Shown here: positions 634 to 64,000 of the stretch, piece after piece
How positions within the stretch are numbered: position 1 is the first letter of the stretch
How the letters are laid out: every line of letters starts with the position of its first letter
DNA from: Chrysomallon squamiferum
Taxonomy: Eukaryota; Animalia; Mollusca
DNA length: 64,000 nucleotides
NCBI GenBank assembly: GCA_012295275.1
Contig: CM022678.1
Location: 17,050,001-17,114,000, forward strand
Direction of reading: 5' to 3'
The notes under the pieces: model-generated
Told to the model about the DNA's origin: nothing
Seen by the model: only the letters and a program-made list of their open reading frames with translations
The model's database searches: none
Translations under genes and position numbers: made by a program

Positions 634-676
634 CTGTTTGTGATAAAACAAACAGTACAATTATTACCGGAGACAT
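634..676 (-). CDS. Exon 1 (signal peptide MSPVIIVLFVLSQT) of paralogue Z; rest of gene presumably lies left of the window
   Basis: 43-nt ATG...CAG|GTAAGT exon homologous to exon 1 of copies A-E, preceded by the same upstream module. Confidence 0.7.
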
Positions 677-2542
677 TCTTAATATAACTTCCGTCATTAT
701 GAATCGGGTATCTCAATGTCGTTGTAAATTCGTGAGCGAGCAAGCTCGAGTATCCAGTGTCTGTTCTTCTATACGTAACACACTACCTTAACATGTTAAA
801 TAGTTTTGAAGAAAGAAGAAACAAAAATATTCTACAATGTCCTGTCGTTTGTGTTCTTTTCGTACCTATCTATAGTTTCAATTTCCTTGTAGGTCATGGT
901 ATAAAAATAGACAGTTTCACAATGACGCGTATCTATATTTAGAATAGAAATCGTAGTACACTGGAAATACTTCGTTTCCATGTACGTACCAATGTATATG
1001 TATTGATACACACACTCATACATACGTACACACTTACATGATCATAAGGACTTATTAGGTATAAAGACTATATAATATAAACGATATAATTTATTTCATA
1101 ACGCAAATTAATAAATTATAAATAATTAATTGCAGCCATCTAGCAACTATAATTTAAAAGTAAAACCCGCCGTGTCAAATGTTACAGGGATTTACTTTTC
1201 CTGTAATAGTTCAAGCCATCAACATAATGTGAGAGTTTAATCCAGCTGTCCATGTATATAACAGTAAATAAGGCTACCGACTAACCGAGATGAAAATGTT
1301 CGCCTACCTATCGCTATGTATCCGGCAATTTTGGGTGGAGAGAACAAACTATACTTAACCGACTCATATAACCTCATTCTCACCTAGAATTAGTATACTA
1401 TTCTTAAATCCAATTTATTTTAATTATAATAAAGAAATTTCCTGAACATTTTTACACTAAAAATCCAGATTTTTCTCTCTGCTACTGAAAAATAATATAA
1501 ATTAAAGTGTAATTAAAATCAAATTAAATTAAACAAAATTAATAAATGAACTGAAATCAAATGAAATTAATAAGTGTATAAGACAAGTATTTTATTGTAA
1601 AATCTAATTTATTTTAATAATAAAAAAAATTACTCAATATTTTTGCACTAAAAATACAGATTTTTCTCTGTGCTGTAGAGAAACCATTAAATTATTTTCA
1701 TTTATAATATAAATGCTGAAATCGCATTTAAGTTATTTTCGAATTTTATGGATTATTTATTTCTTTGTTGTTTATTTATCATCATTATGAGCAACATAAT
1801 TTTATTTATTTATTTTTATTATAATTTCTATATCATAATAATAATAATAATAATAATAATAATAATAATTATTATTATTATTATTATTATTATTATTATT
1901 GTTGTTCTTGTTGTTATTATTATTACTGTTATTCTTTTAATTTATTCCTTTTTTATGAATGTAGGATATTTTTCTTTATCTTTAAACAAACAATTTTTGA
2001 AACTATATTTAGCAATCTGAATAAAATAAAATAAAATTTAAGTTAACAAAAAAAAAATATATATATAATTAAAAAAAATAAATAACATGTAATAAAAAAA
2101 ATTAAAAATTGAATTAAAATAAAATTAAATAAATGGAAATTAAATAAATATAAATTAGATAAAATAGGTGAAATTAAACTAAAACAAAACATGTCTACCT
2201 GTCTCTGTATATTAAAATATTTTGATCAGTAGAATGTCCGGGTATAATGAGTTTGTACTATATTCATTATATTCTGCTGAGTAAGTAAGTCATTTCACTG
2301 GACTCTTCTCTGCTGATGCAATGTTAAAAAGTCATGTACTCGTACGAACACAGACATACACACACAGAGAGATGAACATATACAAACACATAAAAACATA
2401 CAGACTCAAATATACAAAGGCGTTATCACACGCGAAACACATATACACACAGGCACATGAAGACCTACACGCATACATTAACACACACACAAATGTGCAG
2501 ATGTAAACACGCACTCACACGTATACATATATACACAAACAC

Positions 2543-62200: not shown

Positions 62201-64000
62201 ATACCAGATAGAGACGGATATATTAGGAAGGATTTGTTTGCAGAATACAAGCATACTAGATACACTATTCAGAATTCGTGAACACGTTCTTTCGTCATAC
62301 GATAAACTGTTAAATTTTTAATCATTGAACTTTGATGTATAATTAATTAAACTTTTAATTAAATTGAAATAAATACTGTTGTAGTTTAATCCCTTAATTG
62401 TTAAATTATGGAGAGTTCGATGGGCGTCCAACAATTCACTGTTTGAAAGTGGGTGATACCTGAAATTCAACAACTATAACAAAATTAAATAAATAAATAA
62501 ATAAATAAATAAATAAATAATAAAATATAACACCTTTAAAAATAAGAACAGTGATAATAACAACAAAACTAATAAATAAATGTATAATTCTCACAACTTT
62601 ATAATTAGATATGCTATGCGTACTTATAGATTATATATGCATGTATGTATGTATTATATATAAATTATGTATAAATGTAAGTATGTATGTAAACATATTT
62701 GTGCATGTGCATACAATTTCTGCGTTTGTACACAAGTATATATATATATATATGTGTGTGTGTGTGTGTGTGTATATTTATGTTTCTCTGTAAGTGTTTT
62801 CAATATGTGTTTGTTCGAATGTGTATATTTGTGTGGATGTATATATATGGATGTCTGTTTGTATGTATAATTTTTCATAATAAATAGTACTTGATATAAT
62901 GTTTTGTCAACTTGTTTAGATTCAGTTAAGAGTTTCAAATGTAAAGACAACTCGTGGTTCTGTTCTCCTGACAACTGCGGGCCGGAAGACGAAATGGACT
63001 GTATGAAGACTTGCAGAGTTTGTACAGGTAAAGTTATCAGTGTTCCAGCATAACATAGTCATGAGGAGAAGGATAGATACACAGACTAGTTCATGTGTTA
63101 AGTAACGATATGCAGAATATTTGGTATGTTAATGTATCATATACATGTCAGATAGGACATAGACTAGCTAGAGACGGATATATTAGGAAGGATATGTATG
63201 CAGAATACAAGCATACTAGATACACTATTCAGAATTCCATAACAGTAAACAGATTTCAGCAGAGATACAGAGGATACACAACAACACACATAGGAAAGTT
63301 ATATATTAGGCAGGTCGTATACACAGGTTACCAGCTATGTTAAGATAGGCTACACAGACATGGTACTTTGTATACAGTATGAAACATATATTAGGTGGAA
63401 TAGCTATATTGAATATAATGATTGGGCAGGTTATTTTTATTTTTAACACGCGGTTTCATGAATACAAAAGCGAGCGTACACATACAAGAAGGACAACCAC
63501 ATATAACACTGTCACAAAATCATAAACATTTTTCATTTATTTTAATAAATATAACGATTGTTCTTGTTCCATACATACATTCACAGGCACACTATTTTAC
63601 TTTCAGTAAGTTGATATAACTAATTTCATTTACACGTTCTCAGAAACCTCGCATCTACTCTGTCTGTTTCTCTCTTAATTTCTGTAAATGTGATAAGCTT
63701 CCACACAAAACAAACCCTCTAACTTTCAGTAGATTATTCAGAGTAATTATACTTTTAGATGAGGGATGTCCTGAAGGTTATTACCATGGTGATGGCGACA
63801 CGTGTATTTCCTGTTCTGTCGAAATCACAAAACATTCACCAAATTACAAAGAAAAATGTAATACACTAATTTGTCCCAGTAACAAAACGCATGGTTATTA
63901 CTGTGATGAGAACTGTAGTGACAGTTGCTTGGATAGAAGATGTTACCGCTGGACGGGTGATTGTGAACGTTGTCCTTCTGGATTATCTGGACCACGTTGT
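55620..64000 (+). CDS. Paralogue E (5' part): signal peptide, two tandem ShK exons, start of EGF exon; continues beyond window
   Basis: Exons 55620-55662 (MSSVIILLFLLTQT), 61966-62067, 62926-63027, 63759->64000; no lesions seen in these exons. Confidence 0.8.
57142..57195 (+). pseudogene. Degenerate exon-1 copy (stop)
   Basis: ATGTCCTCGGCAATTACTGTATTATAG behind the conserved module. Confidence 0.55.
58232..58270 (+). pseudogene. Exon-1 copy with splice donor deleted
   Basis: MSLIIILLFVLS then deletion of CAG|GTAAG. Confidence 0.6.
61966..62067 (+). CDS. E: ShK exon a
   Basis: [28 protein letters not shown]. Confidence 0.8.
62926..63027 (+). CDS. E: ShK exon b
   Basis: [28 protein letters not shown]. 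Confidence 0.8.
63759..64000 (+). CDS. E: EGF-like repeat exon (partial)
   Basis: [19 protein letters not shown]...[10 protein letters not shown], open to the window end. Confidence 0.85.

Follow-up and report, generated by a model that had tools for sequence, protein, structure and literature searches.

A tandem cluster of single-phosphatase receptor genes with a six-cysteine tip in Chrysomallon squamiferum: candidate variable recognition receptors

What kind of receptor is encoded again and again at this locus of Chrysomallon squamiferum, and what might so many copies be for? The first-pass annotation had described at least six paralogues of a 13-exon gene and had taken them for a cluster of variable recognition receptors. 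Exon mapping of the window (the whole 64-kb stretch of DNA that was analysed) gave six tandem units of a receptor phosphatase gene, named Z, A, B, C, D and E; 11 exon-1-like blocks were seen. The count of six thus held, but only units B and C carry all 13 exons, whereas Z is represented by exon 1 alone and E is cut. The features are as follows, with PTP for the tyrosine phosphatase domain and EGF for the EGF-like repeats.

634..676, minus strand: unit Z, exon 1 coding for the signal peptide, with its ATG and GTAAG donor preserved; the remainder would fall left of the window
3371..10121, minus strand: unit A, a pseudogene with no PTP exons and a truncated acidic exon; exon 1 10079-10121, tip 7133-7234, EGF 5237-6324, transmembrane 4563-4638, basic 4038-4144
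12264..25479, plus strand: unit B, full set of 13 exons; exon 1 12264-12306, tip 17181-17285, EGF 18156-19254, transmembrane 19806-19905, then 20531-20637 and 21180-21595, PTP 22196-25479
27861..27903, plus strand: extra exon 1 upstream of C, left by a tandem duplication of 3.5 kb (92%)
31314..31356, plus strand: unit C exon 1 (43 nt, phase 1), coding for the signal peptide
35456..35557, plus strand: unit C tip exon, six-Cys and ShKT-like, C-x6-C-x4-C-x7-C-x3-C-x2-C, phase 1-1
36290..37386, plus strand: unit C EGF exon, MEGF/laminin-type repeats, frame broken near 37179
37835..37928, plus strand: unit C transmembrane exon, top 19-residue hydropathy 2.7
38390..38499, plus strand: unit C basic juxtamembrane exon
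39024..39457, plus strand: unit C acidic Tyr-containing tail exon, 24% D/E, 8 Tyr
39836..43562, plus strand: unit C single PTP domain with KNRY, DYINA and WMD, then stop; seven exons at 39836-39923, 40966-41042, 41260-41394, 41708-41833, 42117-42277, 43012-43147 and 43449-43562
45787..54013, plus strand: unit D, a pseudogene; exon 1 at 45787-45829, a second, degenerate one near 47367-47456, tip at 50186-50287
55620..64000, plus strand: unit E; exon 1 at 55620-55662 with degenerate copies of it near 57083 and 58172, a pair of tip exons at 61966-62067 and 62926-63027, EGF from 63759, cut by the window's right edge

None of the window's copies is intact: lesions were found in A, B, C and D, and Z and E run off the ends. 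The EGF exon of unit A has stops near 6301 and 5662 and lacks a single base just where that of C does, and the unit A tip has Val at the Cys4 position. In unit B, insertions near 18644, 18839 and 18925 break the frame of the EGF exon. Unit D has a deletion from the tip intron to the middle of PTP exon 4 and carries PTP exons 4-7 twice (50752-52158 and 52467-54013), with an in-frame stop in exon 5 of both. With regard to the states ascribed earlier to the copies, members with frameshifts (A, B, C), with lost domains (A, D) and with duplicated exons (D, E) were indeed found, but the near-intact state needs qualification, since no copy is fully open and C is one base short in its EGF exon. Lesions, deletions and duplications spread across the units in this way support birth-and-death turnover, and most of what the window shows is the family's dead fringe. 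It is very unlikely, in our judgement, that this picture is in part an artefact of assembly, with C and E representing alternative haplotypes of a single gene and the one-base break in C arising from a sequencing error. In favour of this, the introns and EGF of C and E share about 96% identity, and the break lies within a short T run. On the other hand, the EGF sequences of A, B and C are only 87% identical, too distant to be alleles; E is no colinear repeat but a patchwork of B-like and C-like blocks; A is one base short at C's place in a different local sequence; and the stops in A and D are substitutions. The artefact could remove at most one unit.

The architecture is best judged from copy C, whose 13 coding exons have compatible phases and AG acceptors and GT donors. 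The predicted protein of about 905 aa comprises a signal peptide, the six-Cys tip, EGF repeats, a transmembrane helix, a basic and an acidic, Tyr-containing tail segment and one PTP domain. This bears out the earlier description of a signal peptide, about 365 aa of EGF, a transmembrane helix, a Tyr tail and a single PTP (the ShKT label of the tip being a separate matter), and the classical layout of a receptor-type PTP (signal peptide, ectodomain, one transmembrane helix, cytoplasmic PF00102) is present in the genomic model. The EGF exon encodes 365 aa with 62 Cys and 11 N-glycosylation sequons; Pfam returned no family for this exon alone. No canonical ITIM was found in the unit C tail. A candidate 51-nt exon at 34608-34658 was dropped, since exon 1 already splices to the tip in frame without it. 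Rfam gave no matches in the window.

PF00102 matched four of the PTP exon types, and the unit C domain keeps the catalytic motifs KNRY, the WPD-loop Asp, HC(X5)R and the Q-loop; the P-loop reads HCSDG in unit B and in the first PTP block of D. The domain is 42-46% identical to molluscan D1 domains and 27-29% to D2, and in a comparison of five proteins only it scored 198-203 bits against D1 of three molluscan MEGF-RPTPs and 171 and 150 against two other PTPs. No D2 exon was found in the window, where tblastn with three D2 domains matched D1 exons only; a stop codon follows D1, and the next exon 1 lies 2.2-2.3 kb downstream. None of four candidate homologues of PTP exon 5 passed our checks, and for PTP exon 3 two of three passed, both distant and neither a close relative. 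As far as these comparisons go, the lineage seems, weakly, to be one with no annotated close relatives.

Are such genes expressed? RNA contigs of runs X8 and X9 skip exactly the intron 35558-36289 (GT..AG), and the DNA runs X1 and X3 do not, demonstrating that the tip is spliced to EGF in the RNA of family members. At position 37179 the RNA carries one more base than C at full depth in both runs (7.34 of 7.34 in X8, 49 of 49 in X9), which keeps the frame, and among the contigs listed there was no near-identical contig across the break of C. It is evident from the RNA contigs that several distinct members are transcribed with the frame kept. Beyond the EGF exon the evidence is indirect: the match to one X9 contig breaks off precisely at the EGF donor 37386, and another contig, equal in depth (9.88), lies on the transmembrane exon. 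A 2992-nt X9 RNA contig, which by size fits a single-PTP mRNA plus about 400 nt of UTR, was not counted; it matches 37100-37265, and its match breaks off at 37265. Hence, the expectation that transcripts join ShK, EGF and PTP exons was confirmed for the tip-EGF junction, but the EGF-to-PTP junction was not directly seen. In the DNA, 955 and 1366 contigs in two runs matched 1959 bases at >=88%; with about a thousand contigs per run on 2 kb the family is large, tens of members or more being a rough reading, as summed contig depth does not equal copy number.

Whether the tip is an ShKT domain has to be judged from several lines of evidence. The tip exons measure 102-105 nt across copies and the module 33 aa, with 28-29 residues from Cys1 to Cys6. 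Five of the six have six Cys ending in C-x3-C-x2-C, the exception being A, which lacks Cys4. Six Cys, a Cys-x-Asp start and a C-x3-C-x2-C end with Thr are shared with the ShKT domain (PF01549, PROSITE PS51670), a helix is predicted before Cys5, and 22 of 30 ESM Atlas matches, which are based on language-model features, were ShK-bearing clusters. The tip differs from that domain in its 28-29-residue length, in its seven-residue acidic Cys3-Cys4 loop with no Lys-Tyr pair, in lying below Pfam detection, and in being carried by a receptor phosphatase and not by a secreted peptide, astacin or CAP protein. Pfam ShK (PF01549) matched none of the six tip exons at E<=10 and none with flanks at E<=1; no family at all was returned at E<=10, a result that the first-pass annotation itself had held to count, formally, against its label. 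A PDB sequence search with the tip profile gave two matches at chance level (E 1.3 and 1.8). Three matches from a HMMER search of 1.84 billion representatives were rejected, all being tandem-repeat sequences lacking both the six-Cys pattern and PF01549, and 45 pattern matches in metagenome contigs yielded no confirmed case. As to the ShK fold, with its disulfides C1-C6, C2-C4 and C3-C5, the AF2 model of the tip (pLDDT 65, pTM 0.27) found no match with Foldseek or VIA, a weak test at 33 residues. The label is therefore retained on the Cys pattern and the Atlas features, against negative Pfam, PDB sequence, Foldseek and VIA searches, with no HMM or fold match: the tip is probably a shortened ShKT-like domain that lacks the channel-blocking Lys/Tyr loop. 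Molluscs do have non-canonical ShKT domains in which the Cys3-Cys4 loop is altered (PMC6409789).

The ShKT domain of MMP23 modulates K+ channels, and the same could be imagined here, with the tip acting as a toxin domain on channels of the same or a neighbouring cell and coupling channel contact to dephosphorylation. The ShKT-like Cys pattern and the Atlas features are compatible with this. However, the Cys3-Cys4 loop is acidic and devoid of Lys and aromatic residues in all six copies, and the variation sits in other loops; ShK itself blocks channels through Lys22 with Tyr23 (PMC6409789). We consider such a channel function highly improbable, the least probable of the readings discussed here.

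Between units B and C, amino-acid identity is 62% in the tip, 74% in EGF, 83% in the PTP and 61% in the transmembrane and cytoplasmic tail; the tips are thus hypervariable, as had been claimed, relative to EGF and PTP, but not relative to the transmembrane segment and tail. C and the second E tip unit, a pair picked after the fact, differ at 14 of 102 tip positions, 34 of 927 in the flanking introns and 8 of 242 in EGF (Fisher, P = 1.0e-4 for tip versus introns and 1e-3 for tip versus EGF). Seven of the ten changed tip codons are non-synonymous, and five of these seven fall at residues 9-15. Compared with the first E tip, C shows no excess (tip 12/102, upstream intron 29/192), and both E tips have the same loop residues. 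The B-C dN/dS is 1.98 for the tip, 0.72 for 5' EGF and 0.45 for the PTP, where it should be underlined that tip values rest on 2-8 synonymous differences per pair (B-E1 <1) and span 0.38-6.63 over 15 pairs; values above 1 also occur in the basic juxtamembrane exon and in some pairs of PTP exons 4 and 6. The pooled EGF and 'EGF3' values, taken out of frame, are left aside here. A six-copy loop-versus-intron test, for which the loops were selected after the alignment had been inspected, gave P = 0.002 with column sampling and 0.12 with variable columns. Taken as a whole, change in the tip is concentrated in two loops between Cys1 and Cys3, with the Cys and the acidic half fixed, and an excess of divergence in these two loops is supported.

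A mostly neutral turnover could also be envisaged, in which copies are cast off from a small number of functional genes through unequal crossing-over in microsatellite-rich DNA, and in which tip divergence reflects paralogue conversion and pseudogene decay, not selection on binding. All four units that can be judged (A-D) are broken, dN/dS exceeds 1 outside the tip too, and the shared loop residues of the E tips mean that conversion can explain the C-E contrast. The confinement of change mainly to two loops beside a fixed Cys frame and acidic half, the in-frame transcription of several members and the PTP dN/dS of 0.45 nevertheless make this account quite unlikely.

The closest known system is the SudRes1 cluster of Biomphalaria, with a galactose-binding tip, MEGF and tandem PTP. 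SudRes1 of B. sudanica comprises MEGF-RPTP paralogues with extracellular diversity and domain loss, associated with schistosome resistance (PMC12297450). Together with the B. glabrata LG5R subgroup 1C (PMC13712769), it shares with our locus clustered single-pass MEGF receptors with a cytoplasmic PTP, extracellular diversity, domain loss, copy-number differences and a proposed role in host-parasite recognition. The Biomphalaria genes, about 17 of them annotated, have a galactose-binding/fucolectin tip and tandem PTP and adjoin antistasin genes, whereas the Chrysomallon tip is a 33-aa six-Cys module above one PTP; on a casual reading of the window, no antistasin-like ORF came to notice. Of the MEGF/GBD-RPTP features, multiple EGF repeats are present here, but D1 plus D2 are not, nor is an N-terminal galactose-binding domain, because the 33-aa tip exon splices straight to the EGF exon. 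'ShK' does not occur in the main text of either paper, and no ShK-tipped or single-PTP version of such receptors was found in the open-access literature searched, which was covered mostly at the level of listings and otherwise through main texts; members with one PTP or with another tip may be present in SudRes1 Supplementary Data 5.

Six of 60 candidate EGF relatives passed, all of them molluscan MEGF and MEGF-RPTP proteins, and the EGF Atlas ranks 1-3 were clusters commonest in Mollusca, with a recognition score below threshold. Three molluscan MEGF-RPTPs, P0001 (Tegillarca granosa), P0003 (Haliotis rubra) and P0004 (Mercenaria mercenaria), share with unit C an EGF rod (29-36% identical), a transmembrane helix, a Tyr-bearing juxtamembrane tail and D1 (41-46% identical), but all have D1 and D2 and lack both a Pfam ShK domain and the six-Cys pattern of the tip; P0003 also has galactose-binding domains, unlike the units here. 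The scavenger receptors MEGF10, SCARF, PEAR1 and Draper have laminin/PEAR1-like EGF repeats and single-pass topology in common with our units; their signalling relies on short Tyr motifs and they lack any catalytic domain, whereas the Chrysomallon tail carries a PTP.

RPTPs are classic adhesion-signalling receptors, and the same proteins might, like vertebrate RPTPs, serve non-immune recognition or adhesion, in gamete, neuronal, epithelial or developmental contacts, the variable tips giving cell-type or species specificity. The architecture is equally compatible with this, and the tail has no ITIM. Yet so many pseudogenes and so much gain and loss of copies are more in keeping with families driven by pathogens than with genes of development, and SudRes1, the most similar cluster described, has been linked to parasite resistance; we regard a non-immune role as unlikely. 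Our preferred reading, to which we give about even chances, is a birth-and-death cluster of single-PTP receptors whose variable tips probably serve recognition, either in immunity or in telling self from non-self. The immune function is what we infer, and the published analogue SudRes1 (PMC12297450) raises its odds and lowers its novelty; allorecognition is the more tentative candidate role.

Under the preferred reading, the genes would descend from lophotrochozoan MEGF-RPTPs by loss of D2 and exchange of the galactose-binding tip for a phase 1-1 ShKT-like exon. The glycosylated EGF rod would hold the tip about 365 residues off the membrane, and the variable tip loops would bind a foreign or polymorphic ligand. 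Binding or clustering would switch the phosphatase and so damp tyrosine-kinase signalling at the acidic Tyr tail, and new tips would arise via duplication, exon-level conversion and selection. More tentatively, and as a possibility that we rate clearly lower, a lophotrochozoan lineage may have turned the ShK toxin fold into the variable tip of tens or more catalytic receptors, with disulfide frame and acidic face fixed and two short loops made diverse through exon-level conversion and selection. The outcome would be a germline-encoded set of sensors for non-self or for symbionts, directly coupled to a single tyrosine phosphatase.

In snails, parasite resistance was recently linked to clusters of MEGF-RPTP genes. 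Because the Chrysomallon tip is encoded by a single small, symmetric exon and varies in two loops, its synthesis and testing would be much simpler than those of an ectodomain built of lectin and EGF. A relative that seems to have kept the stalk and phosphatase, dropped D2 and exchanged a lectin tip for a 33-residue disulfide module suggests that the recognition part is exchangeable. If the tip is ShKT, a receptor role would be added to that fold, and should the function prove non-immune, the family would still represent a new domain architecture.

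Blast searches of the whole window with the exons of unit C, our reference model, and an exon-1 probe returned 11 exon-1-like blocks, six tip exons (the short six-cysteine exon after the signal peptide), four MEGF-type EGF exons and four blocks of tyrosine phosphatase (PTP) domain, giving six tandem receptor-gene copies:

Unit Z: minus strand; exon 1 at 634-676
Unit A: minus strand; stops, tip without Cys4, truncated tail, PTP absent
Unit B: complete exon set; EGF frame broken by three insertions; P-loop HCSDG
Unit C: a single break near 37179
Unit D: deletion starting in the tip intron and ending within PTP exon 4; exons 4-7 twice, with a stop in each set
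Unit E: three exon-1 copies and two tips; continues past the window edge

Turnover is evident from this exon mapping, which bears out the first-pass annotation in that near-intact, frameshifted, domain-deleted and exon-duplicated states all occur; none of the six is a demonstrably working copy. In EGF, units A, B and C share 87% identity, too little for them to be alleles. The ~96% identity between C and E indicates that one of these may be a haplotype duplicate, but E has a mosaic structure, with some blocks resembling B and others C. In PTP exon 6, HCSDG replaces the P-loop HCSAG in B (25068) and the first block of D (51689), while C and the second D block retain HCSAG; judged from sequence, the HCSDG copies are possibly a catalytically impaired subfamily, which would give pairs of active and inactive receptors.

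The window has ~30% GC and abundant microsatellites, and the closest protein relatives of its genes are molluscan, none of them near. In unit C the borders of all 13 exons could be placed with compatible phases, and the coding total of 2717 nt is one base below a 905-aa frame.

Exons of unit C
Signal exon: 43 nt, end phase 1
Six-cysteine tip exon: 102 nt, phase 1-1
EGF exon: 1097 nt
Transmembrane (TM) exon: 94 nt
Basic exon: 110 nt
Acidic exon: 434 nt, eight Tyr
PTP exons: seven, the last ending in a stop

Four PTP exon types matched PF00102 in the Pfam search; in C, MVQT is kept and WPD is replaced by WMD. This domain is 42-46% identical to the first (D1) and 27-29% to the second (D2) PTP domains of three molluscan MEGF receptor PTPs, whose D2 queries found no separate exons in the window. 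With the stop after the D1-like domain of C, this confirms the proposed single PTP per gene.

Part of the EGF exon is present in nine public runs from three studies. RNA contigs skip the intron 35558-36289 exactly (one in X8, two in X9, both runs coming from the same study and examined as assembled contigs), and the joint was not found in DNA runs X1 and X3; tip and EGF are thus joined in transcripts, as anticipated. At 37179, one extra base relative to the window occurs in 100% of the RNA depth of X8 and X9, so the frame is kept there in the expressed members seen. One X9 contig matches C up to precisely the EGF donor 37386, and the TM exon is covered by another X9 contig of equal depth, which suggests EGF-to-TM splicing; that joint is absent from the splice joints listed for the RNA contigs. 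All six tip exons stay open into the intron for eight codons before a stop (e.g. 35558-35583), so that an unspliced or early-ending transcript would yield a secreted signal-plus-tip peptide. X9 contigs are present in this intron and may be only pre-mRNA or DNA.

In the DNA runs, 955 and 1366 contigs match 1959 bases, mostly 90-99% alike, with contig depth (which does not equal copy number) highest on exons. Loose contig ends carry additional tip versions with unalignable first loops, and the family probably has at least tens of members. At 37120-37214, DNA contigs of X1, X2, X3 and X5 'go back 95', which suggests members with additional EGF repeats and variable stalk length.

A 20-nt block starting TATAGAAG is conserved before exon-1 copies, at a distance of ~100 nt (e.g. 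12164, 27761, 31214, 55520, 58132), with nine occurrences against 0.02 expected, and is likely a core promoter. Promoter and exon 1 are duplicated more (11 blocks) than the remaining gene (six tips), and the surplus could supply alternative promoters. Intron 1 of unit B holds a decayed integrase-like frame (14250-15300, minus strand) with many stops, a weak Pfam Integrase_H2C2 match (E 0.0026) and no clear terminal inverted repeats; it is probably a dead transposon. The EGF-TM intron of C contains a high-copy interspersed repeat (37535-37730), frequent among RNA contigs too, with a summed X5 depth of ~300,000 vs ~57 for a lone near-identical contig alongside; by eye, the inverted repeat 15507-15556 looks like part of this element.

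Five of the six tips show the pattern C-x6-C-x4/5-C-x7-C-x3-C-x2-C, starting Cys-Lys-Asp and ending Thr-Cys-x-Val-Cys. The ShKT label given earlier is favoured by this pattern and by ESM Atlas, where PF01549-carrying clusters made up 22 of 30 hits (the best at 0.91, 184/256 features, PF01549 in 11% of 102 members; recognition 2382; a family or clan common to 10/10 best named hits), the top hit being an unnamed cluster. Against it, Pfam assigned no family to any of the six exons, and no usable match came from a profile search of PDB, from HMMER against 1.84 billion proteins, or from Foldseek and VIA. According to PMC6409789, HMMER is known to miss molluscan ShKT domains whose Cys3-Cys4 loop is altered, and ShK channel block uses a Lys22/Tyr23 pair. 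We consider a ShKT-like domain quite probable; in each of the six copies its Cys3-Cys4 loop is acidic and lacks a Lys22/Tyr23 counterpart.

Between B and C, amino-acid identity was 62% in the tip, 74% in 5' EGF, 61% in TM plus tail and 83% in PTP; the claimed hypervariability of the tips therefore holds relative to EGF and PTP, not to TM plus tail. The corresponding dN/dS values were 1.98 (based on about two synonymous changes), 0.72, 0.77 and 0.45, and tip values over 15 pairs ranged from 0.38 to 6.63. The strongest signal comes from C and the second tip unit of E, a pair selected post hoc: mismatches numbered 14/102 in the tip, 34/927 in flanking introns and 8/242 in EGF (P = 1e-4 against introns, 1e-3 against EGF), with five of seven amino-acid changes at residues 9-15. 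Exon-level conversion would account for this contrast as well as point-wise selection does, and the first tip of E showed no excess over its intron relative to C. Over six copies, loop positions differed by 0.44 vs 0.26 for introns (P = 0.002 or 0.12, depending on the test). The tip loops are variable, and selection on them is suggested.

PMC12297450 describes SudRes1 of Biomphalaria sudanica as clustered MEGF receptor PTPs with extracellular diversity, domain loss and an association with schistosome resistance; the B. glabrata counterpart is subgroup 1C (PMC13712769). The window genes resemble SudRes1 in cluster behaviour but depart from it in two defining features: SudRes1 has a galactose-binding tip and tandem PTPs, the window genes a six-cysteine module and one PTP. 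An ShK-tipped receptor PTP did not turn up in searches of the open-access literature. For ligand, cell type and signalling, which we infer, the tip loops would bind ligand, a glycosylated EGF rod would act as spacer, and clustering by ligand would regulate the single, putatively active phosphatase, working close to the acidic Tyr tail (no ITIM in C). The likeliest product is a variable recognition receptor, with an architecture that is real, to all appearances undescribed, and placed among already-known invertebrate receptor clusters.
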